This document shows positions 2,971 to 51,081 of a DNA stretch of 64,000 nucleotides, in pieces. The stretch covers positions 88,288,001-88,352,000 of the forward strand of contig OZ024744.1 in the NCBI GenBank assembly GCA_964016885.1. The letters run 5' to 3'. The stretch's first letter is position 1; each line of letters starts with the position of its first letter. Under the pieces are notes generated by a model, which worked only from the letters and a program-made list of their open reading frames with translations, searched no databases and was not told the origin of the DNA. A program made the position numbers and the translations under genes. The DNA is from Eledone cirrhosa. Its lineage: Eukaryota.

Positions 2971-2976
<6 letters not shown>

Positions 2977-3845
2977 AATTAAGTTAAAAGTGTACATCCA
3001 CATATGTATACTGAAATACTAGTATGTATATAAATACACACACGTATACATATGTACATGTACCGAGTTTTTTCACTGGACACTTTACTGTGAGTGTCCA
3101 GCTAGTCTGTATGTAACCAAACAGACAAACCGGGTTTTAGAGTCATACGGGTTTTCAAGGAAACACATTTCCTCTATTCTCCAGAGAGCCAGACAGGAAC
3201 ATTGGACCAGTTTCGATGTTATTACATCTCATCAGCAATATATACCCATCTTCCGGCTCCTCTAGAGAATCGTAAAAGCACATATCGTTATATGCTTTTT
3301 CTATGAAAATTAGTAGTGGGCAGACCAATTCGCATAGAACGTGAGTTGTACGCACCGGTTCAGCGGAAACGATAAAAACAAATAACGAAACGAAATTAAA
3401 TTTCGCTTCGTTTGTAACTCACTTTTGTATGACTGACGCTTAAACAATTAAGTTAAAAGTGTACATCCACATATGTATACTGAAATACTAGTATGCATAT
3501 AAATACACACACGTATACATATGTACATGTACCGAGTTTTTCACTGGACACTTTACTGTGAGTGTCCAGCTAGTCTGTATGTAACCAAACAGACAAACCG
3601 GGTTTTAGAGTCATACGGGTTTTCAAGGAAACACCTTTCCTCTATTCTCCAGAGAGCCAGACAGGAACATTGGACCAGTTTCGATGTTATTACATCTCAT
3701 CAGCAATATACACCCATCTTCCGGCTTCTCTAGAGAATCGTAAAAGCACATATCGTTATATGCTTTTTCTATGAAAATTAGTAGTGGGCAGACCAATTCG
3801 CATAGAGAATCGTAAAAGCACATATCGTTATATGCTTTTTCTATG
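2971..3845. repeat. direct duplication of about 365 bp (2971-3336 / 3441-3806) plus about 40 bp local re-duplication
   Basis: Both copies start taaacaattaagttaaaagtgtacatcc and end cagaccaattcgcataga; offset 470 bp. Confidence 0.9.
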
Positions 3846-5600
3846 TTGATCAGGGCCACACCCGTGTCAGGTTCCTTAACCATCCTCTCTATGATGTATC
3901 GCATGAGGTGGAGATTGTAGTGTATGGATCTGTCCGGAATGGCGTATGTCTCTGCCTCACCCACCTAACCCTCGACGACAAGGGCCAACCTCGTTGCTAA
4001 CACCTTGGCCAAAATCATGAAATATGCGTTTATCAGGTTTATGGGCCTGAAGTTATCGATAACAACCCCCTTGTCTCGGGTCTTTTCTCAGCAGCACCAC
4101 CGATCCCCGACTCACAAAACTAGGAATGCTCCCGTTTTGCTGCCAGTTGCAGTAGACGTCTGCTAAGAGGTCACCGAACAAGTCTGACATAAATGCATAA
4201 AGCTCGTAGGGCAGACCATCCAAACCTGGCGATTTACTCCTGGTGCAGCTAGCCATCGCTTCCCGTATTTCACTGGCTGTTACTGGCTGTTATTGGCAAC
4301 ACTGTGCTGCGGACGTGAAGAGCCGAGGCAGTCCATCGAGGTATGCACTGAAGTCCATACCCCGATCCGGGCCGCCGCTGCTGCCGAACAGTTCAGCAAA
4401 GTGCTGCTGAAAAGCTTGACACATCTGCTCGGGATCAAGCAACACGCGCCTGTTTTGATCAGACAAAGATCGAATTGTGGCTTTGTTTCCACGTCGCGCC
4501 TCTGCCACCCGGGCCCATTGGACGGCTTTTGTCCTCTCGTGTTTCAGAGCACGCGCTCTTTCTCTGACAACGCAGCCTTCGTGTTTTGCGTTGAAGAATT
4601 GGTCGAGTGCCAATCTCGCCGCAAGCACGTCGGTTGCGATGTCTGTCCTAAATGCCTCTTCTAGCTCTCTGACTAGCTCTCCCTCTACTCTATTTTCCTC
4701 CATCACTAGCCCTTTGCTAAACCTAATCGACTCTACTTTAATTGCCCTTTTCAGTGCGAACCACCACCTGTTGTTGACGACCGTTCCTGTCAACGCCCGC
4801 TAAACTGATACGCTAATCCGGTCTCTGTAGGCTTTGCGCGCCGGGAAAGACGCGTTCAGATTCCTGTAACCGGGCCCTTGTCTATGGAGTCTGTCTATGT
4901 CGATCTCACAGATGACAAATTTATGGTCTGTGTAGTCGACTATTTTAAATTGTGGACAACTTATACTAGCCTTATCTAGTTCTCTGCAGAATACCCCATC
5001 GAGATACGATCTGGATGACCCGATGAGGTTTGTCCATGTCCACATTGGCACATTCAGGTGATCCAGTCGATACCTGTCAGACAGTTCAAAACGTCTGAGC
5101 AGGTTGGTGAGGCTCTTGCACCCTCCTCCCCTACCTACTAGCCTCACACAATCCCAGCGTGCATCCAAGATACCGTTCCAGTCGCCCACTAACACTAAAG
5201 AGCGGGACGTTCCAAGAAAGGTCTCTAGACGTCTAAAGAAATCTGGCCGTCCTGTCCCTGTCGGGGCATAGACGGCTACTAGCATGAAAGCGTTGCCTTC
5301 GGTGCCGCTTACGTCCAGCACCACCAACTTACCTTCTGGGTCCAGGAAGACGGTCCGTATGGCGAGACCCATGCCTTTCCGAAACAACACAGCCACCCCC
5401 CCCCCCCCCGGACGGCTCGGAGATGCGTACACCTCGTAACCGTTGAAGTTCGGTGCGAAGGCTTGCGTTTCGGAGATTCTCGTCTCGCTGATGGCCACCA
5501 CATGTATGTTTAAATACCTGAGGTCGTTAAGAAAGTGACTCTGCTTCCAAACCGAGCTCAAGCCACGCACGTTTACACTTCAGATCCTTAATACGGCCAT
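3846..5600 (-). pseudogene. L3 ORF2 (APE endonuclease + partial reverse transcriptase), disrupted
   Basis: ORF fragments 4800-5570, 4290-4793, 4053-4256 and 3623-3964 (AIPDRSIHYNLHLMRYII). Confidence 0.9.
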
Positions 5601-5632
5601 GTTGGGTGAGGAACGGGGCAAGTGAGAAAGGA

Positions 5633-7675
5633 TCACTTACCTTGATCGTTTGCTGAAGGGACCGTTGAATCGTCCCTTCGGCTGTTCGTCGGCTCTTCTG
5701 TGAGTATATCCGAGTATACTCTCCGGTTGAGTGTCCCTCCTAGGTCTCTGAAATCACCAACTGCGTTGGGGAATTTCATTTTAATGTTTGTGTATTGTTT
5801 CTGTGATATTCTTACCAGTCTTATGTTCGTTGGTGTTTTGATTGGTACTGGTATTATGTAGTCGTGCTGTGAAATGTCTGTGATGTTGTGTGTATTTATT
5901 GCTGTGCATTTCTTTTTCTGGGAATGGGGTGTGGTTCTGCTATTTTCTTGTCGTTGTTGCTGGGTGTGTGTGTTTTGTTGTTGTGTTTGCGATATTGGTG
6001 CTAGTGTGGGTGGTGATGGTGTTGGTGGTGTTGCTGCTGTAAGTCTCTTTGCAGTAGCCTTTACCCTTTTTTTCATTTCTTCCTTCGATTTTCGAAGGCG
6101 ACGATGCGATGCTTCTGCATTTGTGCCTTCTTGCGACCTTTTGCCATCCCTCTCCCACCTCACACTACATGTCCGATTCTGTGAGGTCGGGGAGGGGTAC
6201 CAGCTCCACTCTTTCACTTGTTCTTGTTGGTGATGGTTGCAGTGGAGTCTCTGTTGCAGCTGCAGTTGGTATTACTGTTGTTGTTGTTGTTAATACTTCC
6301 TCTGCTGCTGCTGTTGTTGTTGTTAATACTTTCATTGCTGCTGCTGTTCTTGATTTCCGTGGCGTGTGTATGGGTGCCACGGACCTATCCTTCCTGCTTG
6401 CCGCCTGTCCTGTTGCTGGTAGCAGTGGAGCCGGTTTCGGAAGGAGGGAGGTTTTCTCCTTTCTCAGGGTCTTCTCATTGTAGAAGGCCCTGAGGTGAGT
6501 CTTCGACCCACAGCGAAAGCATTTTGGGCGTTTGCCCTCAACACTTATAGAAAGTTGAGCGTCGTTATCGAAGTCTATCACATCCGGGATAGCTTCGATG
6601 CACTCCTGGTTGGTTTGAATTAACATCTCAATGGAGGCGCCGACCCAATCTTATCGTACTTGTTTCTGTACTTGCAGTACGGTTGTTTTGTCCTCGATTC
6701 CGACGAGGACAGGCCAGCCAAGAAGGGGCCATCCCGGGGGGGGGGGACTTGGGTCACTTTGACCCTCCCAATTTTTTGCCCGCAGTAGGAGGGCACCAAC
6801 ACCATTTCCTCGCTCCTTAGGGTCACTAAGGATTGAACTGTTGCTTCCTGGGGTGTGGCAAAAAGCACGTCCACGGTGGCATATTTCTTGCCTCGGGTGA
6901 TATGCGTTTTCCGCTGCCACACAGACCCTAAGGCTTTTTGTATTTGAGCCTCTGTGGCTCTTTCAACCCTACGTGATGTTGTGCTTACTGTACGGTATGT
7001 GACCGTACAGTGCTGTTGGATTTCGAAAAATGTTTCGGCTGCCTCGCAGATTGTTCGGTGTCCGGTTTTCGTCACCATCTTCTTTGCTTCCTGTAATTCC
7101 TCATTTGTTATAAGGATGGTTTCCAGGTTCTTTGTGATACCTGCAAACGAGATTGGTTTTTCTTACTTGTTGTTGTTGTTGTTGTCGTCAGAGCTGCTGT
7201 TACTTTTGTTGTTGCTGCTGGTACTACGACCGCCACCGCCGCTGTTACTGCTGTTGTTGTTGCTGTTGCTGCTGTTGCTGTTGTTGTTTATGCTGCTGCT
7301 GATGTTGTTGCGGCTGCTACTAATATTTTCCTCGCCACTGTTGCTGCTGCTGCTGTTATTACGGCTGCTGCTGCTATTCTTCACGACGTCAGATGAATGA
7401 AATGGCTTTCCGTATTTACCGCACACATCTTTCGTCGTTGTCGTCGTCGTGGAGAAATGTTCCACGGTACGCGCGTTCTCTTGATGAAGAACGCTACGAG
7501 AAACTACATTTTTCTTTTTCTTTAATGGCGTCGCTTGCGAAAGAGGCGACAGAGGCGACACCACATTTAGAGAAGGGAGGTAGACAGACAATCTTTTCTC
7601 TGACGTAATGACGATTGAGGAAGAAGAAGACGGAAGGAGTGGGAGTGACTTGTGAAAATTCTTTTTTGTAACCAT
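5633..7675 (-). pseudogene. L3 ORF1 (RRM-like domain, CCHC knuckle, low-complexity tracts), frameshifted
   Basis: ITRGKKYATVDVLF, CFRCGSKTHLRAF, C-terminal KFPNAVGDFR; homologous to the other ORF1 copies here. Confidence 0.85.
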
Positions 7676-8156
7676 GTTTTTTTTTACGGTTTAAAATGAA
7701 TGTTGGGCACAAAGCCCCAATAGCTGATTATTTAACTCCGAAGGGCCAAATAACGGGCAGAAAGACCCCTCTCACGAGGAGGAGGGTGTCTTTATCTACA
7801 ATTTGGTTCAAGTTTTAAACAATTTACAATTGTTATAACAATTGAAAATTACTATACCTTACAGAGTCGAGCCTCCGTCAACCATGGCATTCAATAATAA
7901 TAATAATAATAATAATGCTTTCTTTATTAACCAGAAGGGTTTACAAAGTAAGACATTAAGGACAATACAGGACGGTACAAATGGGCATTTCTGCGTGTTA
8001 AAAAAACCCAGAGGATGTAACAAAAAAATAAACAATGAAAAATTCCCCAATAGGGGGCACACTTCCGAGGGACATTCGTGGAGAAAGCCCATTAAAAAAG
8101 CCACAGTGACCCTGACCACCAGGGCAAGTGCCCTTTCCCAGTTTTCCACCTTCAAT

Positions 8157-10599
8157 TTACAGGCACATACTCAGAGTAGGCCCATTCACACGCGCCATTC
8201 TTGTTTCTCTCACCCATTGTTCAACAAAATGTTGGGTAGAGAGCACTTCCCTCTCTACCCTGATTTTCCTTTTCAAATGAAATTTGAAAAATTTAATCAG
8301 GGTTTCACCGAAGAGGTAAGTGCTCGTCTTCAGCCCTTTCAAACGCGTCCACCATACTATCCCTTTCGCCATGGCCACCAGACAAATAAAAACTGCCCGC
8401 CCTTCCCGGCTAAAGGGAGATGGCGGGAAAATCTTCATGATGGACTCAGCTGATAGCCAGATCCCTCCTACACGCGACAGGTGTTCGACAAAAGCCCACA
8501 AGTCAGCAATCCTCGGACGCTGGACGAATATGTGCAGGACGGTTTCGTCGCCTGGGTGCATCTCGGACATACCCGCCTGACGGCACCTCCATGCATGTAG
8601 AGTTTATCCCGAACTGGCAAAGCTCCTCGGTAGCGTCTCCAGTTTGTGCAGTAATGGCTCGAGAGTCAATACGTACCAGAGGGACGAGAGGGGACATCCT
8701 TGGCGGACCTAGCGCATGATTTTGAACGGTTCCGAAAGGTGACCGTTCACTCTCACGACAGAGCAGATGTCGCTGTGCATGGCAGCGATCCAGCCTCTGA
8801 ACATGGGCCCAAAGCCAGCCGCCCTCTGGACTGCCGCCAGATAACGATGGTCGACCTTATCGAAAGCTTTCGACTGATCTAAATTGATCAAGCACCCACC
8901 CGTGCCAGGTTCCCTAGCTACCCTCACCACGATGTATCGCATGCGGTGCAGGTTGTCGTGGATGGATCTCTCGGGAATAGCGCATGTCTGCGCCTCTCCC
9001 ACCAGACCACCAACGACAAGCGCCAACCTCTTTGCTAGCACCTTTGCCACAATCTTGAACTCTGTGTTTAGCAGAGTTATGGCACTGAAATTATCTATGT
9101 TATCCCACTTGTTCGGATCCTTTCTCAACAGCGCCAACGCTCCTCGGCTCACAGAGCTGGGAATTCTCCCGTTCTGTTGCCAGTTGCAGTAGACGTCCGC
9201 CAAGAGGCCTCCGAACAAGTCTGGCATCTGTACGTAAAGTTCATAGGGAAGACCATCCAAACCAAGCGATTTACACCTTGTGCAGCCAGTCATTGCCTCC
9301 CGTACTTCAGCGGTTGTTATCGGCTTTTCGCAACGCTCCGCCTCAGTAGGCGAGAGCCGCGGCAGTCCGTCGAGTTAGGCACTAAAGTCCATCCCTCGAT
9401 CCGGCGCGCCGCTGCCCCCAAACAGCTGAGCAAAGTGTCGCTGAAAAGCTTCACACATTTGCCCCGAATCGAGTAGCATGCGCCCGTCGTGGTCCACCAA
9501 AGACCGGATCGTGGCATTGTTGCCACGACGCGCCTCCGTAACTCAGGCCCATTGAACGGCTTTCGTCCCCTCGTGTCTGAGAGCACGCACCCTAGCTCTG
9601 ACAACGCAGCCTTCGTGCTTTGCATTGAAGAATTGGTCGTGGGCCAATTTCGCCGCAAGCACATCGGTCGCGATGCCTTTGCTAAGCGTCTCGTATAATC
9701 TTCTAACTAGTTCTCCCTCTTCTCTAGTTTTCTCTATTGCTAACGCCTTACTAAACCTAATGGACTCTATTCTAATCGCTCTTTTCAGAGCAAACCACCA
9801 TTTGTTGCTGACGATCGCACCCTTCAACGCCCGATTAACTAGTTCGCTAATCCGGTCTCTGTAGGCCTTGCGCGCTGTTAACGAGGCGTTTAGCTTCCAG
9901 TAGCCAGGCCCCTATCTATGAAGCCTATCTAAGTCAACCTCACAGATCACGAATTTGTGGTCCGTGTATTCGACAATTTTGAATTGTGGGCAGCCTATGC
10001 TAGACCTATCTATTTCCCTAGAAAAAACCCTTTCTATACATGATCTGGATGACCCGATGCTGTTTGTCCATGTCCACATTAGCACATTCGGAAAATACAG
10101 ACGGTACTTTTCAGATAGTTGAAACCGTCTGAGCAGGTTTGTGAGGCTTTTACACCCTCCTCCCCTATCTGCTAATGCCACTCAATCCCAGCGTGCATCT
10201 AAGATCTCGTTCCAGTCGCCACTAACAATAAAGAGCGGGACGTTCCAACGAAGGTCTCCAGACGCCGGAAGAAATCAGGTCGCCCTGCTCCTGTCGGCGC
10301 TTAGACGACCACTAGCCTGAAAGAATGCCCGTCTCCGCTGGTCACGTCCAGCACCACCAACCTACCTTCTGTGTCCAGGAAGATGACGCGTATGGCGAGA
10401 TACAAGCCTCTCTGAAAAAGCACATCAACCCCTTCCCCCGAACCTGGACAGCTGGGAGATGCGTATACATCGTAGCGCCGAGTATTGGTGCGATGGCTCG
10501 TGCGTCGGAGATTCTGGTCTCGCTGATGGCCACCACATCTATGTTTAGTGACAAACCCAGGCCACGCACATTTATGCTGCCTACTCTGAGTAAGGTCAT
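8157..10599 (-). pseudogene. L2 ORF2 (APE-RT-zinc finger), disrupted
   Basis: MTLLRVGSINVRGL; ITLLNTEFKIVAKVLAKRL; INLDQSKAFDKVDH; jumps near 8635 to the C-terminal DETVLH region. Confidence 0.9.
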
Positions 10600-10634
10600 G
10601 TTGAAAAGGAGTGAAAAAAGATCGGAAAGACCAC

Positions 10635-12588
10635 TTACCTCATTTCTTGTGGAGGAAGGATGGTTTTTCCGTCCTTCTCACTGTTTGTGGCCCCCTCCGG
10701 AAAGATGTCTCTATAAATCTCCTGGAAAGTGTTTGTTGGAAGTCTCCGATGTCCTTGGGGAATTTTAATTTTAGTGTCGTCTATGTTTTCTGTGCGATGC
10801 GAGTGATTTGTATGTGTGGGGTGGTGTGAATTGTTGGGGTGTTGTATAGTCTTTTTCTGTGATGCTGGTGTTGTGTTGGATGTAGTGTAATGGTTGGTTA
10901 ATGTTCAAATTTAATGCTGTGTAGTGTGTATCGTTTTGGTTGATTTTTTTTTTTTTTTTTTTTGCGTTTGTAGTGGGTTTGTTTCTGTTTCGCTTGTTGG
11001 TGATTTTTGTGGTGTAGGTGATGGTGGTGTTGGGGTTAATGATGGTTGTGGTTTGTGGTGATGGGGCTGGTGATGCTTGTGTGAGTGGTGATATAGCTGT
11101 CTTAACTTTTTTGTTAGTTTGTTTGTTTGTTTCGCCCTGCATTTTGTTTTTGGAGGGCGAAGGAAGAGGATTTTTCCATTTTGGTTGCTTTTTATTTTAT
11201 TTATTTCGAGATACATTTCCCACACCTCCTCGTCGTCACAATCTGTCTCCAGTTGCGAGAGGTCGGGGAGTGGAAAATACTCCACAGGCGTTGGTTTTAG
11301 TTGTGGCGCTGGTGCTAATTCTGGCGCGGTGGGTTGTGATGGTGTTGGTTTTGCTACTGTTGCTGCTACAGTTGCTGGGGTTGTTGCTGCTACAGTTGTT
11401 TCTGTTGTTGCTGCCATTTCTGCTGCTGGTTTGATGGTTGAGTCACTGTGGTGGACAAGAGAGGTGGCCTCAACTTTTTAGCCTGTGGGCAAATGCTTTT
11501 AGGTGGGTTCCTTCGCCACAAACGACACATCTAGGCCTTCTACCCTCAACGATTACGGTGAGGTGGCTGCCTTCATTGAGGTCTATCAGCTCCGGAATTT
11601 CCTCAATGTTTTTTTGGTCTGCTTGGAGCTCCATCCCAGATCCGGACCAGTCCTCCTGCTTTACTTTTGTTACTTCAATTATGTTAGTGTTGGCCTCGAT
11701 GTCGGTGAGGACGGCAGCCATTAGCCAGGAAATTTCGATGGTCGGTGGAATGTGGGTCATCCTGATCTTCACGAGTCTCTGACCACAATAAGTTGGGACG
11801 AGTGTGAAGTCATCACTTCTTAATGGGGCCATGGAGTGCTCTTTGGCTTCCTGTGGTGTTCCAAAGAACACATCCACGGTTCCATATTTCTGCCCACGCC
11901 TTATGTGGGGTTTTTTCGCCCACACATGTCCCAAAGCTTTTTGTATCTGGGACTCAGATGCCACTCGGCTAGATTTTCTGTTTATCGTCCTATACGATAC
12001 AGTGCATAGGCGCCGATGCTGCATTTTTTTAGAGGGGGGGGGGTCATCCTGGCTTACCTCGATTGTTTCGCTTTCTTTGGCTGCTTTAGCAAACGACACA
12101 TTTTGTTTTGCGCTGGTGTTGATGTTGTTGTTGTTATTCTCATTGTTGCTGTTGTTGCTGTTGTTGTTATTGTTATTTTTGTTATCGTTATTTTTAGTTT
12201 CAGTTGTGGTGGAGGTGGTGGTGGTGGTGGTGGTGTCAGTGGTGTTCGGCGTGGAAGAGTCGATTCTGGGTGAATCCAATTCGATGTCACGAGATTATAA
12301 TTTATGTTTTGTTCTGTTGTCGCTGTGGTGGTGGTGGTGCTGGTGGTGGTGGTGGTGGTGGTGGTATCAGTGGTGTTGGTTGTTCTTTTTGACATTGTGG
12401 TGGTGGGAGTGGCGGCTTTAACACCTGTAGTTATTGGTAATACAGTCTTTATGCGGCAAATCTAAATGATTGAGGCTGCTATTAATTATATTTTCAGTGT
12501 TGGCAACCGTGACAAGGCTTACAATGGTGTTGGTGGTGGTGGGGGAGGGGGATATTGGTCTGTTAAAAACAGGAGATTTGTCGTCCAT
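10635..12588 (-). pseudogene. L2 ORF1 (divergent), frameshifted
   Basis: IRRGQKYGTVDVFF, CVVCGEGTHLKAF, PLPDLS; poly-T/N tracts. Confidence 0.85.
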
Positions 12589-12802
12589 GTTTTTGTTTCA
12601 AAGAAATATTTTGTTTGATAAATAAAAAGTTTAAATTTGGGGTCAAGGCCCCAATAATTTTGAGTGTCCTTTTCAGAAAGCAATATATGTGAACTTATAA
12701 ACAGTTAACAACAAAAACCTTCCATAACTTGCAATTTGAAACAACTGAAAACAACAAACCTTTGCGGAGGTCACAATAATACGATTTCCTACGTAGGGCG
12801 CC

Positions 12803-12906
12803 AATAATAATAATAATAGTAATAATAATAATAATAATAGTAATAATAATAATAATTGTTTCTACTATTGGCACAAGGCCAGCAATTACCCAGTACATTA
12901 CTGGTA
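12803..12906 (-). mobile_element. 5'-truncated SINE 3' end with long (ATT)n tail, between L1 and L2
   Basis: ccagtaatgtactgggtaattgctggccttgtgccaatagtagaaacaa(tta)n matches the SINE 3' end. Confidence 0.85.
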
Positions 12907-13194
12907 ATAATAATGATAATGGTTTCTATATTAGCCACAATGGCTAACATGAAGAAAAACATTACAGACGGCGCAGAACAGTACAGGACGATACAAAGTG
13001 GGTTTTGGTCGTGTAAACAGGTTATAACAAGATAGAAATCGGGATAGAAATCGAAAAAATGCAAACAACAAAAATTCCCCAATAGGGGGGGGGGGAAACC
13101 TCCGCGGGTCACTCGTAGCGAAAACCACACAAAAGACCACGGCCACCCTGACCACCAGGGCAAGCGCCCTCTCTCAGTTTTCCCACTCCTTAGT

Positions 13195-16100
13195 TTACAG
13201 GAGCATACTCAGAGCGGGCCCGTTACTCTGACCAGACTCGCCACTTTCACCCACCTTTCAACAAACTTACTTAAGACAGCACTTGCCTTTCCACCCTGAT
13301 TTCATCTTCAAGTGAAACTTGAAAAAGTTAATCAGGGATTGGCCGAAGAGGAAATTGTCTGTCTTTAACCCTTTCAACCTTGATGGCGGGGCTATCTGCA
13401 CAACGGAATCGGCCAATAACTGAATCCGTCTTACACGCGACAGCAAATGTTCGACATAGCTCCACAAGTTAGCAATGCTCGGGCACTGAACGAGTGCGTG
13501 CAGGACGGTTTCGTCGTCCTGCGCGCATCTCGGACAGGCTCGGCTGACAGCACCTCCGTGCCTGTAGAACTTATACCGAACCGGCAGCGCTTCCCGGTAG
13601 CACTGCCAGACCAGGGATGTCTGGAAATTGTAATAGGGTCCGGTCTGAAAGTTCTCTTGAAGAGAGCGAACAGCGGATCGCCTTCGACGCCCAGGGTCTC
13701 TCCAAGATCATCGTCGCTTTTTCCGTCAACAAGCCCTCTATAGAACGCCGAGGTTGATGTTCCACCGATACTAGAAGGTGCTCCATTTTGGTCAGAGTTG
13801 GGCGGGGTCAAAGTGCGACGGTTAGGCGGTAGTAGATGACGGACGCGATGTACGCATTTGCCACCTCCCCCGACCTTTCAGGGACAGCTTCCTCTCGGCC
13901 CATTTCTGAGTGAGAGAAGCCACCCTGCTCGTCACCTTGCTCCAGATTTTCTCTATCTGGAGGCCCGGACCGAACCAGACCCCGAACAATTTAACCAGTC
14001 CTTCCGTCCAGCGCCCCACGACCATGTCGGACAGCATGGAGTTGCCTCTCCAGGTGCCGAGTTGCAAACCCACCGACTTCTCCTGGTTTATTGTTGCTCC
14101 TGTCACCGCTTCGTATTCCTTGAGAGCGGTGCCGAGCATCTGGACGTGTTTGGTGCTCGACACCAGCAAGGTGACGTCGTCGGAGTATGATGACACGGAT
14201 CTCCCGCATCCCAGTTCGCGTGTGACGCCCCCCACATCGTCTCCAATTTGTGCAGTAACGGCTCGAGGGCCAGTAAGTACAAGAGGGACGATAGGGTCAA
14301 CCCTGGCGTACCGAGCGCATGATGCTGAAAGGCTGCGACAGGTGACCATTCACCTTCACAACCGAGCAGATGTCGCTGTGCATCGCAGCGATCCAGCCCC
14401 TAAAAACGGGCCCGAAGCCGGCCGCCTCGAGGACCTCATTCAGGTACCGATGCTCGACCCTATCAAATACTTTAGATTGATCCAAGTTGATCAGGGACCT
14501 ACCAGTGCCAAGTTCATTAACCACCCTCACTATGATGTATCGCATGCGATCGAAGTTGTCATGGATGGATCTGTCCGGAATATCTGCGCCTCTCCCACCA
14601 GATCATCGACGACAAGCACCAATCTCTTTGCTAACGCCTTGTCCAAAATCTTAAACTCTGCGTTTAGCAGAGTTATGGGCCTGAAGTTGTCTATAACGTC
14701 TCCCTTGTTCGGATCTTTTCTCAGCAGCGCCACTGCTCCCCGGATCACAAAACTGGCAATGCTTGCGTTCTGCTGCCAGTTGCAGTAGACATCTGCCAAG
14801 AGGTCGCCGAACAAGTCTGGCATATACGCTTAAAGCTCGTGGGGCAGACCATCCAAACCTGGCGATTACCCCTCGTGCAGTTAGACATAGCTTCCCGTAT
14901 TTCACCTGCTGTTATCAGCTTTTCACAGCACTGCGCTTCGGTCGTCGAGAGCCGCGCCAGTCCGTCGACGTATGCACCGGAGTCCATACTCCGAGCCGGG
15001 CCGCCGCTGCGCCCGAACAATTGAGCAAACTACTGTTGAAGAGCGGCACACATCTGCTTAGGTTCGAGTAACATGCGCCCGTTTTGATCAGGCAAAGACC
15101 GAACTGTGGACTTGTTGTCTCGTCGCGCCTCCACCACCCGGGCCCATTGGACAGCTTTTGTCCCCTCCTGTCTAAGAACACGCGCTCTAGCTCTGACAAT
15201 GCACTCTTCGTGCTTTGAAGAATTGGTCGAATGCCACTCTTGCCGCAAGCACGACGGTTGCGATGCCTGTCCTAAACGCCACTTTTAGCTTTCTAACTAG
15301 CTCTCCTTCTACTCTATTTACCCCTATCTTTACTCCTTTGCGAAACCTTATTGATTCTACACTAATTGCTCTTTTCAGGGTAAACCACCACCTGTTGTTG
15401 ACGATCGCACCGTCAACGCATGCTTAACTAATTCGCTTATCCAGTCTCTAGATTCATTGCGCGCCGGGAAAGACGCGTTCACCTCCCAGGAACCGGGTCC
15501 TTGCCTATGAAGTCTATCTAAGTCGACTTCACAGATCACAAATGTGTTGTCCGAGTAGCCGACTACTTTAAATTGTGGACAACCTACAATAACCTTATCT
15601 ATTTCCCTACACAATACCCTATCTAGATACGATCTGGATGACCCGATGCGGTTTGCCCATGTCCATATTGGCACATTCGGATAATCCAGTCTATACCTGT
15701 CAGACAGATCAAAAGGTTTGAGCCGGTTGGTGAGGCTTTTACATACTCCTCCCTTATTTACTAGCCCCACATAATCCCAGCGTGCATCTAAGATACCATT
15801 CCAGTCACCCACTAACACTAAAGAGCGGGATGTTCCAAGGTAGGTTTCTAAAACTCTGAAGAAATATGACCGTCCTGCCTCTGTCGGGGCGTAGACTGCT
15901 ACTAGCCTGAAAGTATTGCCTTCGACGCCTGTCACGTCCAGTACCACCGACTTACCTTCTGGGTCCAGGAAGATGGCCCGTATGGCGTGTTCCAAGCCTA
16001 TCTGAAAAAGCACAGCACTCCGCCCCCCACTCCCGGACGGCTGGGAGGTGCGTATTCATCGTAGCCGCCGAGAATCGGTGCTAAGTCTTGTGCTTCGGCG

Positions 16101-16225
16101 ATTCTGGTCTCGCTGATGACCACCACACCGATGTTTAGTGACCTGAGATCGTTAAGCTGGTGGCCCTGCTTCCAAGATGACCCCAGGCCAAGTACATGTA
16201 TACTGCCTATTCTAAGGAAGGCCAT
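13195..16225 (-). pseudogene. L1 ORF2 (APE-RT-zinc finger), disrupted
   Basis: MAFLRIGSIHV; VYAP, GDWN, SYLDR; FRPITLLNAEFKIL; RSVRQG; SSYSDD; LFGVWF. Confidence 0.9.
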
Positions 16226-16257
16226 GCTGGGTGAGGAATGGAGTAAGTGAGAAAGGA

Positions 16258-17789
16258 TCACCTACTCTGATCGTGTGGGAAAGGGACAGCTGAACCGTCC
16301 CTTTGGATGGTCATGGGTGTCTCCTAGATGATGTCGGTGTATATCCTTTTGGTAACTGACCCCCTGAAGTATCCAACTGCGTTGGGGAATTTTTCTTTTA
16401 AATGTTTATAATGTTCTATTTCAATTTCAATAATGTTTATATTTTTCGGGAGAGTACTTGGTATTGGTGGGGTGTAGTAGTTTTTTCTGTGATGTCTGTG
16501 CTGCTTTATATCTTCTAAAAGTTCTTTATTTGCCATGTTTATGGCTGAGTTTTTTTGTGTGTGTGTGTGAGTGAGGGGGGGGGTTGCTGTCTTCTTGTTG
16601 CTGCTGTTGGGTATATTTGTCTTCTTGTGTTTGCGATGTTGATGTTTGTGGTGATGCTGGTGTTGGTGGTGATGCTGATGGCGTTGCTATGAGTCACCTT
16701 GCAGCCTTTACCCTTCTTTGTTTGCCTTCGCTTTTGGAGGGTGAAGTAAGGGTTTTTTTCCTTTTTGTTTTTTGTGGCAGACCGTTTGCCACTTCACTCC
16801 AGCCTCAGACTCCATGTCGGATTCCGTGGCGTCTGGGAGGAGTATGTGCTCCACGGCTGTTGGTGGTGGTAGTGTGGAGCCCTCTCCGGCGATTTTGTTG
16901 CTGGTGCAGCTACTGCAAATGTAGTTGCTGGTGTTGCCGCCACTGATGCTGCTGCTTTAGTTGTCCGTGGCCTTGGTACAGGTGCCACGGACGTTGCCCT
17001 TCTACTCATCGTGGAAGGAACTTCTGCGTTTTTTGCCTGTCCTGCTCTTGGTAGCTGCGGACAAGGTATTGGAAGGAGGGGAGGCTTCTTTTTCGCTGTC
17101 TTCTGCGGGCAAAAGGCTCTGAGGTGATCCTTTGACCCACAGAGATAACATTTTGGCCGTCTTCCTTCCGCGCTTATAGGGAGATGGAGTCCTTTGTCGA
17201 GGTCTATGATATCAGGGATAGCGTCGATACACTCCTGGTCAGTTTGTATTAGCATTTGCATGCCTATACCTGACCAGTTCTCTCTCCCTATTTTCTCTTC
17301 TTGCAGCATGGTCGTCCTGTTCTCGATTCCAACCAGGACAGGCGTGGTCAGCCAAGTTATGGGCACGTCGGGTGGGACCTGGTTCACTTTGACCCTGACA
17401 ATTTTCTGCCCGCAGTAGGAAGGCACCAAGAATATCTCCTCACTCTTTAGTGTTTCCAGAGAGGGAGATTTCGCCTATTGGCGGGTGGAGAAAAGTACGT
17501 CTACTGTGACGTACCTTTTGCCTCGGGTAATGTGGGTTTTGCCCGCCCAGACGCACCCCAAAGCCTTTTGTATTCGAGCCTCCGTGGCCCTCTCCATCCG
17601 ATGTAACATTTTACTTACGGTGCGGTAAGTCACCGTGCGCAGCTGCTGGTTTTTGAAGAAATAGGGTGGTGGTTTCAGGGAAACGCTATTGTCATTTCTC
17701 GACACCATGGCTCTTGCGACTGCCATCTCCTTCTCCGTGACTAACACTGTCTCTATATTTCAGTGACTATATAAACGTGACTCAGCCAT
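16258..17789 (-). pseudogene. L1 ORF1, disrupted
   Basis: ITRGKRYVTVDVLF; CYLCGSKDHLRAFC (CCHC); KFPNAVGYFRG. Confidence 0.85.
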
Positions 17790-17999
17790 GTTTTTTTTCT
17801 TATTATTTTTAAAAGTAAAATGTTCAAATATTGTTCCAATATTTGGGCCAAAAGGCCCAAATATTATACCTTCCCCTTCACAGGGCAAAGTCCAAGGGCT
17901 TATATCCCTCACACAACAAGAAAAATTAAATAACAAATAATTATAACAGGTAAATAAAGCGACTTACTGGGAGCGAGCAAAAAGACCTCCGAATTGACC

Positions 18000-18180
18000 A
18001 ATAATAATAATAATAATTGTTTCTACTTTTGGCACAAGGCCAGCATTACTGGTACTTTATTTTATCGACTCCGTAAGGATGAAAGTCAAAGTTAACCTCA
18101 GGGGATTTGAACTCAGATCATAAAGGGTCGTAACTCTATGCTGCAAAGCATGTCGTCCGACCCTCTACCGATACTGCCAA
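18000..18180 (-). mobile_element. tRNA-derived SINE, at the head of the left array
   Basis: A-box-like tggcagtatcggta, B-box GAGTTCAAATCC, central gactttcatccttacggagtcgataaaataaagtacc (resembles the MetaSINE domain as I recall it), (ATT)n tail. Confidence 0.9.
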
Positions 18181-18619
18181 TATATATAATATCTGTGTGT
18201 GGGTGTATGTGTGTTTGGTTCGGCGTCCATTTTAACATCTAGTACTTGTTTATGACCCGTAATTTAGCCTTCAGATTTGAAAATAAAAGATAATAATGTA
18301 CTCGATGTCGATATGATTGACTAAATCCCTTCATTGTCGCCGTCTAATGGCTGAAACTAGTGAAAGAATAAATATATATATGTATATATTCTTTGGGTTT
18401 AATGAACGGGAGAAATTTTCTCTAGCTTCATCCAATACCTATTAACTTTATGTATTCTTTTCTAATCGCACTAATTCTTTCTAGCATATTTTGCTGATTT
18501 GAGAGCTTCAATATATCAACCTGCTAGGAAAAAATAAAAATAAATGGGCATGGAAGGAACATTTTTGAACATACGCGTATCATTTTTGTAAATATGACAA
18601 CAGTTTATGATACTATTGT

Positions 18620-19188: not shown

Positions 19189-19502
19189 TAATAATTGTTT
19201 CTACTTTTGGCACAAGGCCAGCAAAATCCAGTTCATTACTGGTACTTTATTTTATCGACCTGGTAAGGATGAAAGGCAAAGTTAACCTCGATGGGATTTG
19301 AACTTACTTGTAATAATTGTTTCTACGTTAGGCACAAGGCCAGCAATTACCCAGTGTATTACTGGTACTTTATTTTATCGACCCCGTAAGGATGAAAGAC
19401 AAAGTTAACCTCGGCGGGATTTGAACTCAGAATGGCAAGGGCCGTAACTCTATGCTGGAAAGCATGGCGTCCGACCCTCTACCAATACTGCCAATCCACC
19501 GG
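19189..19502 (-). mobile_element. two tandem SINE copies
   Basis: Same SINE family; cttgtaataat recurs at about 19186, 19307 and 19503. Confidence 0.88.
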
Positions 19503-21514: not shown

Positions 21515-21591
<77 letters not shown>

Positions 21592-28055: not shown

Positions 28056-28305
28056 TCTTCTTTAAGTATCACTTTAGAAGGAGAATCAGGGTGGAGAGAG
28101 AGGCACTGCACCCCATTAAATTTACTGAAAGGTGGGTGAAAGAAGTAAAAATGGCCCGAGTGATTGGGCATTCTGTGTTTATAAGCCTGTAGGTTGAGGA
28201 AGAGAGCAAAAGGAAGAAAGGGGCACTTGCACAACACGCTCCTGGAGTTGAGTGTTGTTCTATCAACGAAGTATTAAACAACCCATTTGTGGTGCCTCCC
28301 CCCTA
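28056..28305 (+). mobile_element. Tx1 subfamily E 3' fragment flanked by (TATC)n
   Basis: FFKYHFRRRIRVEREAL...MARV*; 3'UTR matches 29880-29990. Confidence 0.85.
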
Positions 28306-28335
28306 TCTATCTATCTCTCTGTTTAAATGTCTATT

Positions 28336-28366
<31 letters not shown>

Positions 28367-28370
28367 TAAC

Positions 28371-30116
28371 TATAGGAGCCGTTTACAACCACGCGCTCCA
28401 TCCGATACGGATGAACTCTCTTCTCCATTCTATAGGTGCTGACTCTGGAGCCACTACTGCGGAAGTTGGAGCTGCTGCAGGGCATCCCGTTGGAACCGGG
28501 ACTGCGAAAAGCGGCGTCGGCTTATGCGGAGGAAGTGAAAATAATGGTGTCGGAAACCTCGGTAAACGGGGTGATCGGCAACTTACTGCAGGAATACGAA
28601 AGGCTCACAGGAGCAAAACTGAACCCGGACAAGTCTGTCGGTTTGCAACTCGGAACGTGGAGATGCAAACCGATGCCGTCCGACAACGTCGTCGGACGCT
28701 GGAAGGAGGGACCGGTGAAATTGCTCGGGGTCTGGTTCGGTCTAGACCTCCAGGTGGAGAAAAACTGGAACGAGGTCAAGGGAAAGGTATTTGCGCTCAC
28801 CCAGAAGTAGGCAGAGTGCAAACTATCCTTGAAAGGTCGAACGGAGGTGGCGAACACTTTCATAGCGTCCGTCATCTACTACCGCTTGACCGTCGTGCCT
28901 TGTCCCCGATGGAATGCATGCTCTTCCAGTTCCTTTGGAAGAAGCAGGCTCCACTGGTGAGGAGATCCGTCTGCTGTCAGCACTCTTCCAACGGAGGGCT
29001 TGGAATGCCGTGGGTGATGAGGCGCAAACTGCGCTGACGCTACCGCATCTACAGGTATTCTACACCGACCAACCGGTATGGGCACCGTTTGTGAGACAGG
29101 CCTTGCCGCAAATTGTCTCGCTGACGGAGCTGCAGTCCTGGGTCAAGCAGAGACCGAATAAGATGGGCGCCTGGCACATTGAATGCGCTCAGGCGCTCAC
29201 AGTCCTCTGTCAAGCGGGCAGGGCAATCAGTGGAGCTCCACTTCGACATTCTATAGAGGGTTAGTACGTCACAAGGGCGACAACGTGCTGGGAAAGACTC
29301 TAGGTGTTGAAGGCGACGAACTCACCAGTCCGTTTGGTAGGACTTTCCGCCCGGGACCCATGGACACCTTCCAGAGGTCCCTGGCCTGACAGTGCTACCG
29401 AGGAACACTACCAGTTCGAGATAAGATCTACAAGCACAGACGCCCCGGCAGGGATCCTTCCAAGAGGACGTGTCCAAGATGCGGGCAGGACATTGAAACC
29501 GTCTTGCATGCAACTGTACACTGCCCGGGCGTAACTGACCTGTGGAACTACGCAGAACAACTGCTGTCGTGTATAGGACAAATCCAGTTGACTGCCGAGT
29601 CCATAGTAAGGATCAAACCGCCAACTTCTTTCAAAAACGAAAGATAGGCGGTTTTCTACTGTATAGTGACTATGGTGAAAGAGGTTATATGGTGGACGAG
29701 ATCTGAAGACAGATGCCTTTCTCTCCGGACAACAACTCATTCCGTTCTTTAGGTACCACTTTAGAAGGATAATCAGGGTGGAGAGAGAGGCACTGCACCC
29801 CAGTAAATTTACTGAAAGGTGGGTGAATGTGGTAAAAATGGCCCGAGTGATTGAACCTTCTCTGTATATAAATCTGTAGGTTGAAGAGGAGAGCAAAAGG
29901 AAGAAGGGAGCACTTGTACAACACGCTCCTGAAGTTGAGGGTTGTTCTATCGACGGGGTATTAAACAACCATTTGTGGCGCCTCCTCCCTATTTGAGGAT
30001 TTCGATTGTTAAATTTGTTTGTTTCAATATTTTTACACGATTATATGTAAAATCATCGGCATGTGTCTTTGTTTCGTTCCCTTTCCTTGTGCGTCCTTGT
30101 GGCTAATAAAGAAATA
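28371..30116 (+). mobile_element. Tx1 subfamily E, 5'-truncated, disrupted ORF2
   Basis: LTLEPLLRKL, SAYAEE, LLGVWF, GGLGMPW, zinc finger; ends ccttgtggctaataaagaaat followed by atatctatct. Confidence 0.9.
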
Positions 30117-36962: not shown

Positions 36963-37279
36963 CATATATATATCCAGGGAGTGTAACTTAAAGTTACTGT
37001 AGATTAATCCACGTGAGCAGTCGATGTATTATGTTCACGTCTGTAGCGAGGTGTAGAACTAAACAGAGTGTAAATATAATATTACAAGGACGATTTGTTA
37101 TGCCTTCATTACGTTTATTGATTAATTACAAGTGCAGAAGTCCGGTGAGATTTTGATTCCAGGGTCGGGCCCGATCGATACAGATCGTACCTTGAGCTCA
37201 TCAATAACGAAACGGGCGTTACCAATCGATAAACACAATGAAAGGATAACAAATCGTCCTTGTATTACTATTATTATTT

Positions 37280-37467
37280 GGATTGGCAGTATCGGTAGAG
37301 AGTCGGACGCCATTCTTTGACGCATGGAGTTACGGCCCTTGCCATTCTGAGTTCAAATCCCGCCGAGGTTAACTTTGCTTTTCAACCTTACGGGGTCGAT
37401 AAAATCAAGTACCAGTAATGTACTGGGTAATTGCTCGCCTTGTGCCAAAAGTAGAAACAATTATTAA
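37280..37467 (+). mobile_element. SINE at the head of the right array
   Basis: SINE body; its attatt tail runs directly into a Tx1 fragment. Confidence 0.9.
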
Positions 37468-38321
37468 TGGCAGTGCTACCGGGGGGGGGGGGGGGGGGGG
37501 GGCTCACTGTCAGTTCGGGATAAACTCTACAAGCACGGAATTGCTGTCAGACGGAACTGCCCATGATGCGCACAGAACGACGAAACCGTTCTGCACGCAC
37601 TTATCCGATACCCGTGCATTACTGAGGTATGTCGAACAGCTACTGTCGCGTATGGAACGAATCCGGCTATCGGCCGAGTCCATAGTGAAGATCGACCCGC
37701 CGCCTTCCTTAGGTCAGAAAGAGCAGGCAATGTTGCTCTGTCTGGTGACAGTTGCGAAAGAGATTATATGGTGGACCAGATTGAAAGGACTGAAGACAGA
37801 CACTTTTCTCTTCGGCCAATCCCTCGTCAACATCTTCAAGTTTCACCTGGAAAGGAAGGTGAGGGTGGAGAGAGAAGTGCTGCCCCCAGTACATTTGCTG
37901 AAAGGTGGATGAATGTGGCAAGAATGGCCCGTGTGAATGGGCCTACTCTGACCATGCACCTATAGGCTAGCTAACTTGAGGAGAGGGGTGCTCTCCTTGG
38001 GTGCCCTAGAAGCGCAGGGTGGTTCATGATTGGTGGGGTACCCGAGTCACCCCAGGGTCGTCCACCCCCTAGGGGGGAATTTATTTTGTTATATTTATGC
38101 ATAGTTTATTTTATATTTTCAATATCTTCATTGTTAAATTAGTCTTGGCATTGTGCACTTTTACTCGACCTTACTGTAAACTCCCACTGTCCCTGTCTTT
38201 GTATTGTCCTCTACATGTCGGCCCTTGTGGCTAATAAATGAAATCATTATTATCAGTATTATTGTCTCCTACATGTCGGCCCTTTTGGCCAATAAATGAA
38301 ATCATTATTATTATTATTATT
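37468..38321 (+). mobile_element. Tx1 subfamily D 3' fragment plus a re-copy of the terminal ~45 bp
   Basis: WQCYRG...TLTMHL*, 3'UTR, AATAAA, (ATT)n; terminal segment repeated at 38258-38321. Confidence 0.9.
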
Positions 38322-38329
38322 GTAGGTTA

Positions 38330-41320: not shown

Positions 41321-41572
41321 GAATGGAAAACTGAGAGAGGGCGCTTGCCCTTGTGGTCAGGGTGGCTGTGGTCTTTTGTGTGGTTTTCGCCACGAGTGAA
41401 CATTGGAAGTTTCCCCCCTGTTGGGGAATTTTTGTTTGAAGTTTTTTAATACTTCTATATTCTTGTTATAACCTTTTTACAAGGCCTAAACCCACTTCGT
41501 ATCGTCCTGTATCATTCTGTCCGGTCTGTAATGTTTTTCTTCATGTTAGCCCCTGTGGCCGACAAAGAAACC
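41321..41572 (+). mobile_element. Tx1 subfamily B, 3'UTR-only fragment
   Basis: Matches the 3'UTRs of L1 and R4. Confidence 0.85.
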
Positions 41573-43053
41573 TTCGGAGCTAAATTCCAATTTGAACTTT
41601 GCATATAGCAAATAGGTCCCGCCAAAATAAACATAAAAAATAAAAATGACGTCATTCAAAAAATCTATTTCCATGCCATGTATTCACTCAAAAATTACCC
41701 ATTCAGCAAGATATCCTTCTCAGCCTTTTTCTTCGTCCAGCTGTCAGCGTGGGGCCTCGCTTTCCTTTTCGTCTTCTTCATCGTCTCATAGTGAAGCGAA
41801 TGCCACTCCTCTCTTTTCTCCATCAAGTAGCAGTCGTGAAGCGGCTACTGCTGATACATTTGACACATTTGACACAAAGAATCCAGCAATAGGCAGCGTG
41901 GTCTCGCTTTCCTTTTCCTCTTCTTCATTGTAAAATTCAGGCGAATGCCACTCTTTCCTCTTCACCAACGGCAGCCGTGAAGCAGCTACTGCTGATACAT
42001 TTGACAAGAAGGGAAATAGCAGCAGCAGCGGCAGTATTAGCAATAACACCTGTAGTAGCAGTAGTAGCAGCGGCAGTATTAACAATAACACCTGTACTAG
42101 CAGTAGCGGCAGCAGCAGCAACAACACCAACAACACCGTTTGTACCAGTGGGAACAACAAGACCAGTAGCAGCAATAGCGGTGGCAACAATGGCGCCACT
42201 GAAAAAGAGACCACCTCTTTTGCAAAGGTAACTTGCAAAGTAGAAACAATCAATCATGACCACAGAGGAGGAGATGGCGGTCGCAAGACACATGGTAACC
42301 AGAACTGAATTTTCAGTGTCCTTGAAACCACCAACCGACTTCCTGGAGGAACAAGAGCGACGCACAGTGTCATATCGCACGATTGAGACGAAATCGCGTC
42401 GTGTGGAGAGAGCCTCAAAGGCTCAAATCCAGAAGGCCTTGGGAACTGTGTGGGCACGGAAAACCCACATCACCCGTGGCAAGAAATATGCTACTGTGGA
42501 CGTCCTTTTTGCTACCTCCCAGGAAGCAGAATCGCACTCATTGAGGACCCTACGGAGTGATGACATAACGCTAATCCGTTTTACTGCGGGAAAAAAATTG
42601 TAAAGGTCAAGGTAACCCAGGTCCCACCTTACGTACCCGTGTCTTGGCTGGTCATGTCTGTTCTAGCGGGTATCGAAGATAAACCAACCATTCTGCAGGT
42701 ACAGAAGTTGGGGAGAGAGGACTGGTCCGGTATTGAAATGGAGATGCTTATCCAAACCGACCAGGACTGCATCAGCGCTATTCCCGACGTAATAGAGCTC
42801 GGGATTGGCTCCCAACTTCCCATATCTGTTGAAGGAAGGCGCCCAAAGTGCTTCAACTGTGGACCAAATTTCACCTCAGGGCTTTCTGCCCACAGAAAAT
42901 AACAAAGACCAAGGTCACCCTCCTTCCAACGCCGGAACGGCTGCCATCATAAACGGAGCAGTAAGCGAAAAAGTCGGGATCTTTTACAGAGAATGGTAAG
43001 ACAACCTCCGTGCCAGGAGCGGTAAACCAGGCTCCACCACCACCACCACCACC

Positions 43054-43085
<32 letters not shown>

Positions 43086-46000: not shown

Positions 46001-46739
46001 GAACTTTCAGTCCGAAGCCTATGGCCTACTTCCAAAATTCCCTGGCCTGGCAGTGCTACCGGGGAGAGTTGGCGGTTCGGGATAAACTCTACAGGCACGG
46101 AGGTGCTGTCAGCCGAGCCTGTCCGAGATGCGCGCAGGGCGACGTAACCGTCCTGCACGCACTCGTTCAGTGCCCGAGCATTGTTAACTTGTGGAGCTAT
46201 GTCGAACAGTTGCTGTCGCGTGTAAGACTGATTCGGTTATTGGCTGAGTCCGTTGTGCAGATAGCCTCGCCATCCTCCTTTAAAGAGGAGGAAGAGCAAG
46301 CAGTCTTCATCTACCTGGTGGCCATGACGAAAGAGATTGTGTGGTGGACAAGGTTGAAAGGGTTAAAGATGGACACTTTCCTCTCCGGCCAATCCCTGAT
46401 TAACTTTTTCAAGTTTCATTTGAAGAGGAAAATCAAGGTGGGAAGGCAAGTGCTATCTCCTAGTAAGTGGGTGAAAGTGGCGAGTCTGGTCCGAGTGAGT
46501 ATGAGTATGAGCCTGTATACTGAGGTGTGGGAAAACTGAGAGAGGGCGCTTGCTCTGGTGGTAATGGTGGCCGTGGTCTTTTGTGTGGTTTTCGCCACGA
46601 GTGACCCTTGGGTAAATTTGGTTGTTTTAATTTTAATTTATTTTACACGTTTCTGTCTTTTATAAGCCTTTTACACGGTCAAAACTGTGCCGCCTGTAAT
46701 GTTTTTCTTCATATTAGCCCATGTGGCCAATAATGAAAC
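41573..46739 (+). mobile_element. Tx1 subfamily B copy R4 (ORF1 about 41646-43726, ORF2 about 43759-46520), disrupted, internal RT deletion
   Basis: ITRGKKYATVDVLF, CFNCG; MAVLRIGSIHV; SYLDR; jump from SAYA to LQSW near 45792. Confidence 0.93.

Positions 46740-51024: not shown

Positions 51025-51081
<57 letters not shown>

Follow-up and report, generated by a model that had tools for sequence, protein, structure and literature searches.

Head-to-tail LINEs and SINEs beside ATT repeats in Eledone cirrhosa: insertion preference for a short, probably self-renewing target

In a 64-kb window of the Eledone cirrhosa genome (contig OZ024744.1, positions 88,288,001 to 88,352,000), three long interspersed elements (LINEs), here called A, B and C, follow one another head to tail on the minus strand, and each begins directly after an (ATT)n tract. 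This left array, which also holds two copies of a short interspersed element (SINE), raises the question of whether such elements seek out ATT repeats and, if so, what it is that they recognize. Taking the array together with the other LINE and SINE copies of the window, the single stretch on which all counts below are based and in which all coordinates are given, we find a real insertion preference. It is best read as one for a short target that renews itself and is common to the LINE group and its likely SINE partner.

Junctions and identity of the left array

The three junctions at which a tract meets the first G of an element (ATT/G; 17999, 12802 and 7892) are present exactly as stated in the original prediction. 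Along the minus strand the order is SINE, (ATT)6, LINE A, ATTATC(ATT)3, a SINE fragment, an ATT tract of 54 nt interrupted by two ACT units, LINE B, (ATT)8 and LINE C (Table 1). LINE A starts with GGTCAATT, B with GGCGCCC and C with GAATGCC, and in each case the first base directly follows (ATT)5–8. Every tract in turn sets in 2 nt past the terminal GAAA of the element upstream, which is the SINE before A, the SINE fragment before B and LINE B before C. That the upstream ATT does not belong to the downstream element had been argued before and is borne out: a model in which (ATT)n forms the elements' own 5' end was rejected because tract lengths vary (18, 54 and 24 nt) and the offset is the same as at other 3' junctions. 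Since the left-array tracts abut a neighbour's 3' end, they alone cannot separate a host microsatellite from the neighbour's tail, and the tract before A, B and C may be either such a tail or a duplication.

The array had been put forward as the best evidence for target specificity. A preference does exist, as ATTA-led SINE duplications and upstream ATTAT words indicate (see below), but the left array is not where it is best seen because its tracts sit at 3' junctions, where 26 of the 31 LINE and SINE 3' ends in the window are followed by ATTA anyway. Nor does the common ATT/G phase carry much weight. Agreement of three junctions out of three has a chance probability of 1/9 (1/27 if the break must follow ATT), and of 13 apparent SINE duplication lengths (12 computed, one set by eye for a copy with a first-base mismatch) no more than 2 are multiples of three.

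The 5' ends of A, B and C look complete, to judge from the length, alignment and a shared hairpin of their 5' untranslated regions (UTRs). From the first base to the A-rich ATG of open reading frame 1 (ORF1) there are 210 nt in A (ATG at 17789), 214 nt in B (12588) and 217 nt in C (7675), and all three UTRs have a TTGGG..CCCAA hairpin 27–52 nt upstream of the ATG. Because their end-to-end alignments (58–62% identity) score above all 200 shuffles in each of the three pairs, the UTRs are diverged homologues; their earlier description as different is correct with regard to divergence but not in the sense of unrelated sequences. Likewise, "5'-intact" applies to the ends and not to the elements, all of which are broken, with both ORFs disrupted by stops, frameshifts and deletions. 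LINE A has a broken ORF1 with a CCHC knuckle and a broken ORF2 with endonuclease, reverse transcriptase (RT) and C-terminal zinc finger, the latter frame showing an internal deletion of ~100 amino acids (aa) and 13 stops within aligned stretches. In LINE B, ORF1 is broken and ORF2 lacks ~310 aa (deletion at 8637/8641), and in LINE C a broken ORF1 is followed by an endonuclease in an open frame (5579–4803) and an RT interrupted by truncation. The ORF1s are indeed divergent, with 45–49% protein identity among the (partially overlapping) segments of A, B and C, and nucleotide identity over the longest matches is 78% (A/B), 74% (A/C) and 79% (B/C). With 74–79% identity where aligned, the three LINEs represent separate subfamilies, and tandem segmental duplication was rejected on the same ground. 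LINE A is 90.6% identical to another copy, D, in the 3' part of ORF2. The 3' UTRs of A and B terminate in a hairpin followed by GAAACC and GAAAGC, respectively.

Based on domain content, LINEs A, B and C appear to belong to the L1 group (L1 plus Tx1), a placement supported by the apurinic/apyrimidinic endonuclease (APE), the RT, the C-terminal zinc finger and the CCHC knuckle of ORF1. The APE domain at the N-terminus of ORF2 matches PF03372 (E 2.5e-11 in C, 1.4e-8 in A), and 5 of 5 PDB matches of the endonuclease are the L1 endonuclease or its chimeras. For the RT we used as a stand-in protein P0074, which is 76% identical to the window's alpha copy; it matched L1 ORF2p with E 1e-50 and R2 with E 1e-24, and these were the only two clades compared and found among its 10 matches. 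The CCHC zinc finger zf-RVT (PF13966) was detected in six frames of a second, right array, with a homologous region in A and B. ORF1 is separate from ORF2 and its knuckle in LINE A has the form CX2CX4HX4C. Ten right-array copies are 5'-truncated, and target duplications are clear for SINEs and indirect for LINEs, where a GTT marker is used (see below). The label Tx1 given originally is thus supported by domains and RT at the level of the L1/Tx1 group, but no named Tx1 element was among the matches listed in protein searches with the LINE proteins. A target shared by more than 20% of flanks is common in the Tx1 clade, though not required for membership; in the window, ATTAT comes after 9 of 13 LINE 3' ends, and (ATT)n precedes all three complete 5' ends (two sites). 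The hairpin loop of the endonuclease (NLIGSS/NRIGSS) gives a gap-free alignment with that of L1, and the Tx1L graft in 2v0r has two residues more. The extended loop, absent from the window LINE, is a feature of one Tx1 member and not of the clade. Given the role of this loop in target choice (PMC1950540), its L1 length leans slightly towards a short consensus target. Named close protein matches came from Argonauta hians and Octopus bimaculoides, which points to an octopod host, and a cluster of related ORF2 proteins of ~1150 aa with 38–45% identity indicates that the lineage extends beyond this genome.

The common 3' end and the word ATTAT

LINE and SINE 3' ends share a motif of ~22 nt with the same loop and spacing, followed by ATT. 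When a weight matrix was built from 13 LINE ends, with the ATT tail excluded, 17 of 18 SINE ends came within the top 47 of 127,958 positions, and they ranked directly below the LINE ends of the window (8–17 bits compared with 22–31 bits). In a putative stem of 4 bp that closes a CUUGU loop, 82% of cells are paired, as against 68% in shuffled ends; three of its four pairs change on both sides, 0 of 500 shuffles reached the covariation score, and slid controls were exceeded in pairing as well as in covariation. The SINE itself looks tRNA-type, its head carrying TGGCAGTATCGG and GTTCAAATCC, which resemble A- and B-box words as judged by eye against the consensus; ARAGORN predicted no tRNA gene and Rfam gave no tRNA match, and the central words of the SINE had no match in the MetaSINE supplements other than file 1. 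The copy heading the left array has a mean identity of 91% to 12 other copies. From the common 3' end it seems likely that the LINE is the partner that moves the SINE. At 35254–35430 (minus) and at 57302–57508 and 57529–57742 (plus) the SINE has a longer form, in which the common 3' end is preceded by a C-rich stretch. The copy at 35254–35430 follows ATTATTT, which lies directly next to the 3' part of a much more distantly related L1/Tx1-like element (35445–36640, minus; 23% aa identity to P0074) that contains an internal duplication.

The five exceptions to ATTA at 3' ends comprise three direct fusions, one single mismatch and a copy of a further subfamily, delta. Of 13 tracts with at least four ATT units, 10 abut a LINE or SINE 3' end in the ATT sense and three are unoccupied. 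When repeats were searched without an anchor, the 3' copy of a duplication lay at the SINE end or 1 nt to either side of it in 12 of 18 cases, and for 10 of these the exact length was 10–22 nt. SINEs outside the arrays have duplications of 10–22 nt at 8 of 10 sites (one copy with a first-base mismatch included), and these are ATTA-led in the upstream, pre-existing copy. At 9 of the 10 sites ATTAT or ATTAA, words chosen from the 3' junctions, is found within 25 nt upstream of the SINE 5' end, compared with 9% at random (binomial p 3.5e-9); a four-copy tandem entered this test with its last copy, and its first copy also has ATTAT upstream. Solo SINE sites have only 1–3 ATT units, so the SINE, at least, does not depend on a long microsatellite. 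The effective target thus looks like the short word ATTAT.

Re-use of junctions is apparent in two SINE-only tandems, in which the target duplication recurs between and after the copies (Table 1). The right array is a longer series in which LINE copies of three subfamilies (alpha, beta and gamma), with differing decay, stand head to tail between SINEs. Three of its spacers, (ATT)6G, (ATT)4GTTATT and (ATT)5GTTA, repeat the GTT variant that is present in the flank at its end, (ATT)5GTTATT, and one GTT spacer is a perfect 19-nt duplication. Five of the 10 LINE copies lack an ATT spacer, which fits the short or absent duplications of truncated human L1 and also template switching. The array starts and ends in degenerate ATT repeat. 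Two of its beta copies (46739–47867 and 49875–51025, plus) are 95% identical and 5'-truncated within ~20 nt of each other, either by chance or because they represent a short non-autonomous derivative.

Table 1. Features of the window, with strand and the basis of each assignment.
Feature	Position	Strand	Basis and remarks
Two 367-nt repeats (98.6% identical) with weak hammerhead ribozyme matches	2972..3806	-	Located where the 3' part of LINE C is missing
LINE C, cut inside RT at 3840, without 3' end	3840..7892	-	Pfam, tblastn map, UTR and ATG
(ATT)8 spacer	7893..7916	-	Sequence; LINE B 3' junction and LINE C 5' flank
LINE B, beta 3' UTR subfamily	7917..12802	-	Pfam, tblastn map, UTR and ATG; ~90% to three right-array beta copies
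(ATT)5ACT(ATT)6ACT(ATT)5 spacer, 54 nt	12803..12856	-	Sequence
5'-truncated SINE fragment, 50 nt	12857..12906	-	blastn; at LINE A 3' junction
ATTATC(ATT)3 spacer	12906..12920	-	Likely target duplication of the SINE fragment
LINE A, gamma 3' UTR subfamily	12921..17999	-	Pfam PF03372, PF00078; tblastn map; UTR and ATG
(ATT)6 spacer	18000..18017	-	Sequence; SINE 3' junction and LINE A 5' flank
tRNA-type SINE heading the left array	18018..18181	-	blastn to other copies; ~164 nt, slightly 5'-short, 3' end ...GGCCTTGTGCCAAAAGTAGAAACA
SINE-only tandem, two copies	19189..19501	-	Unique duplication ATTATTACAAG before, between and after copies
Delta subfamily LINE (~28370-30116) and fragment (28057-28306)	28057..30116	+	Same 3' motif; (TATC)n-like flanks on both sides, not ATT
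Right array: SINE, 10 5'-truncated LINE copies (alpha, beta, gamma), SINE, head-to-tail	37279..53894	+	Sequence comparison
5'-truncated restriction-like-endonuclease retrotransposon piece	48171..48920	-	3' end abuts ATT tract, read (TAA)n; CCHC and RPD motif
Second restriction-like-endonuclease retrotransposon piece	51092..52085	-	3' end abuts (ATT)17ACT(ATT)4, read (TAA)n
SINE-only tandem, four copies	57302..58017	+	14-17 nt ATTATTTATCTCCT.. repeat between copies and after the last

Possible routes to the arrays

Taking into account junctions, duplications and the common 3' end, we propose, with a probability of roughly 0.62, that the left array consists of five separate insertions (three LINEs and two SINEs), that the LINE nicks at ATTAT and that each insertion rebuilds this word at its own 3' end. 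LINE and SINE RNAs would end in the ~22-nt motif plus AUU, as seen in the sequence of the copies, and ORF2p would bind the motif, probably as a small hairpin with the CUUGU loop. The APE endonuclease would then nick the bottom strand opposite N/ATTAT (the slash marking the position of the nick), and the freed ...ATAAT-3' end could pair with the AUU end of the RNA and prime reverse transcription; choice by the nuclease and primer pairing as the site-setting step cannot be told apart on these data. A second-strand cut 10–22 nt downstream would produce an ATTA-led duplication of the kind present at SINEs and supported for right-array LINEs. Together, element end and duplication would recreate N/ATTAT, as is the case in the two SINE tandems, so that later copies would land there in the same orientation. 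By analogy with human L1, 5'-complete copies would keep a normal duplication, with (ATT)5–8 before a G that is perhaps cap-derived, and 5'-truncated copies would often join with a short duplication or none. Tracts would probably lengthen by slippage, thereby offering more nick sites, and might then also attract elements with a restriction-like endonuclease (RLE) that use TAA on the other strand.

Several observations weigh against this proposal. The whole case comes from one 64-kb window, and the LINE data from only two sites. With C truncated, the left array no longer has its original right flank, which makes a LINE duplication impossible to prove at this site, and the (ATT)6 behind the first SINE is unlike the upstream flank of that SINE, ATTATATAT (longest match 5–6 nt). 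In thermodynamic terms the hairpin is weak, as 6 of 8 ends fold no better than shuffles, and the covariation of its stem reflects only about four lineages. Two of the 10 non-array SINE sites have no duplication, and mismatched-pair controls gave matches of at least 10 nt in 16 of 90 pairs, partly via the common ATTATT start. The delta copy has the same 3' motif and sits in (TATC)n. Finally, equal ATTAT sites fail on clustering: the 31 ATT-type insertions (delta excluded, C included) occupy 12 sites, and with equally weighted sites 0 of 20,000 simulations gave 12 or fewer, 5–10 times the weight being needed for junctions (P 0.01 at 5x, 0.29 at 10x). Long tracts, with several overlapping sites, supply part of the extra weight, and the rest may be due to context, selection or choice of the window. 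As for the spacer that follows LINE A, it matches, together with the next AC, the first 17 nt after the SINE fragment with one mismatch; as the last bases overlap SINE sequence (microhomology), this match is suggestive only.

The need for extra junction weight would also suit a LINE endonuclease specific for a pre-existing long host (ATT)n in fixed phase, in the manner of Kibi at (TC)n and Koshi at (TTC)n, an explanation that we regard as unlikely. It agrees with the degenerate ATT repeat bounding the right array and above all with the distribution of copies, since arrays with at least four ATT units hold all 13 ATT-type LINE copies compared with 4 of 18 SINE ends (Fisher p 2e-5; two independent sites, delta excluded). 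The LINE on its own RNA may therefore prefer long tracts, as far as two sites can tell, and action in cis and in trans could differ, the target preference of the crocodilian SINEU being weaker than that of a subset of its family (PMC4494074). However, SINEs with the same 3' end are found at 1–3 ATT units, the unoccupied tracts are long ones, duplication lengths are rarely in phase, and the endonuclease loop is not the longer one of Tx1L.

These arguments lean on the SINE, and they would lose force if it were moved by another LINE, for instance one of RTE type that finds its site via a microsatellite-like tail, because SINE duplications would then be uninformative on the nuclease studied here. 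The common end is only ~22 nt long, SINE ends score lower than LINE ends, and RTE tail repeats have been tied to duplication starts (PMC6007223). We nevertheless consider another driver rather improbable, as SINE ends rank next below LINE ends, have the same loop, spacing and ATT start, and LINE and SINE insert at each other's junctions.

Template switching would turn the ATT spacers into RNA tails: the RT would end one RNA at the cap and jump to the AUU end of another, and neighbours would be co-inserted. The three 5'-complete copies, each directly after another element's 3' end, are in line with such events, as are three 3'-to-5' LINE fusions in the right array (41572/41573, 46739/46740 and 47867/47868) with 0–1 nt of microhomology and no ATT, and switches of this type have been invoked for SINE chimeras (PMC4824008). 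They are very unlikely to account for the arrays, given that the unique duplications between tandem SINEs and the GTT marker of the right array need sequential insertion and that neighbours belong to different subfamilies with different decay. Least probable of all is weak targeting, in which near-random insertions would have been retained by selection, either where a region dense in repeats tolerates them or in a uni-strand cluster for PIWI-interacting RNAs (piRNAs) that imposes the common orientation. It could coexist with a renewed ATTAT target and would fit the repeat density of the window, the single LINE orientation within each array, the clustering beyond a simple ATTAT null and the transposable element (TE) hotspots of Octopus vulgaris (PMC13282606). 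Selection on orientation, however, predicts neither base-exact head-to-tail junctions nor ATTA-led duplications at solo sites, nor does it predict solo SINEs on both strands or the two opposite-strand RLE pieces inside the right array, and a piRNA cluster is not needed to account for orientation.

Known relatives, neighbouring elements and significance

Target-specific L1/Tx1-type elements and tandem re-insertion are already known (for a general picture, see PMC4640811), and to a specialist the present case will be plausible rather than startling. Microsatellite-targeting Tx1 families comprise Kibi in (TC)n, Koshi in (TTC)n and a crocodilian Tx1 in (TTCC)n/(TTTC)n (PMC4494074). The window LINE resembles them as an APE-type LINE beside a simple repeat, and its flanks agree in more than the 20% used as a criterion in that paper; it differs in its repeat (ATT), its octopod host and an effective target of probably 5–6 nt. 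The same paper describes a Tx1-driven SINE whose tandem copies around a duplication were read as sequential insertion. Like this crocodilian pair of SINEU and Tx1-Mar, the window has a SINE likely moved by a Tx1-type LINE, a common target and tandems sandwiching a duplication. By contrast, the head of the window SINE looks tRNA-type and not U1/U2, the target is ATTAT instead of a Mariner transposon, and the arrays mix three LINE subfamilies with SINEs.

Human L1 and Alu prime from an A tail. Their nick site is TTTT/AA (PMC2912911, PMC1950540), and full-length L1 copies have normal duplications, those of truncated copies being short or deleted (PMC2912911). The window elements share with them a short consensus nick site (putative here) matching the RNA end, duplications of 10–20 nt, truncated copies with probably short or absent duplications and an endonuclease loop of equal length, the best PDB matches being the L1 endonuclease and ORF2p. 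Unlike in the human system, ATT takes the place of A, a CCHC knuckle is present in ORF1, the ORF2 of relatives is ~1150 aa long, and the existence of a common 3' motif points to stringent recognition of the RNA. RTE LINEs and SINEs with microsatellite-like ends show a correlation between 3' repeat and duplication start, nuclease and RNA-primer pairing being left open as causes (PMC6007223). The same correlation holds here, and delta in TATC fits the site-switching idea of that paper, but the window LINE is built differently, with two ORFs and a C-terminal zinc finger of L1 type.

ATT tracts of the right array may also be used by a second family. Two RLE pieces on the opposite strand, which are 37–44% identical at the aa level, show CCHC and RPD motifs in translation, Pfam giving no match; the best PDB match of the second piece is the R2 nuclease region, and it is weak (E 0.25). 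From their motifs we tentatively take these 5'-truncated pieces to be R4/Dong-like. They are 3' parts without RT, which sets them apart from Dong proper, and the weak R2 match makes the label a provisional one. Dong, an R4-clade element of Bombyx, is preceded by TAA repeats (PMC3774820), and the two pieces likewise abut ATT tracts on the TAA strand. Each is joined to a truncated LINE, 5' end to 5' end and with no ATT (48920/48921 and 52083/52085), either by later insertion without duplication or by joint priming from both strands.

Other features of the window are of a different kind. The 3' piece of another RLE-type retrotransposon (18620–19030, minus) with an RPDG..WNVTC motif ends near a short (ACA)n. 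The 367-nt repeats beyond LINE C, presumably a Penelope-like terminal repeat, match Rfam HH9 at 3182–3254 (E 0.007) and 3650–3722 (E 0.048), both under the gathering score, and are followed by (AT)20 (2933–2972), perhaps the flank that the left array has lost on its right side. A simple-repeat block at 20170–21960 consists of (TTTTAT)75, a TGG/TTG-rich stretch and (TAG)149, and another dispersed repeat occurs as inverted copies, 81–96% identical, at 25149–26804 and 59594–60559. Nothing in the window reached the Rfam gathering score, the microRNA rows being microsatellite noise, and a Pfam SopE row below the cut-off was taken as chance. In a bacterial and archaeal genome collection, where eukaryotic carry-over is possible, the LINE and SINE ends had 0 loci.

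O. vulgaris is reported to contain 80 L1-Tx1 families, of which 13 were active recently, together with Dong-R4 elements that are active, and SINEs make up 11.6% of the genome (PMC13282606); the available text and supplement of that paper contain no mention of insertion targets. Similarly, the available parts of PMC4758252, PMC4824008 and PMC3747384 name no octopus SINE/Tx1 pair. Neither such a pair nor an ATT-targeting Tx1 family turned up in literature searches, although Repbase, Dfam or subscription papers may list them.

The delta copies, 64–71% identical to the other subfamilies, give a hint, from one locus, of a target switch within the lineage. It is tempting, if doubtful, to go further and speculate that an octopod L1/Tx1 lineage has swapped poly(A) and TTTT/AA for AUU and ATTAT, with the RNA end choosing the site; that it drives an abundant octopod SINE; that it seeds and lengthens (ATT)n tracts, which become landing pads for unrelated TAA-targeting RLE elements; and that a change of tail switches the target, as in delta with TATC. 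At the two head-to-head joints of LINE and RLE piece, both strands of a single tract may even have primed one joint insertion.

For the biology of octopod retrotransposons, the proposed renewal of ATTAT would have three implications. Sister subfamilies with the same 3' motif and either ATT or TATC flanks offer a natural experiment on what determines the site, the nuclease or the RNA tail. With 18 SINE 3' ends in 64 kb, the window also suggests which LINE may be the partner of an abundant SINE of octopods, one that may or may not be a major part of the O. vulgaris SINEs. Finally, if the target is restored at every 3' junction, TE hotspots and a share of the (ATT)n content could be explained with no need for selection.

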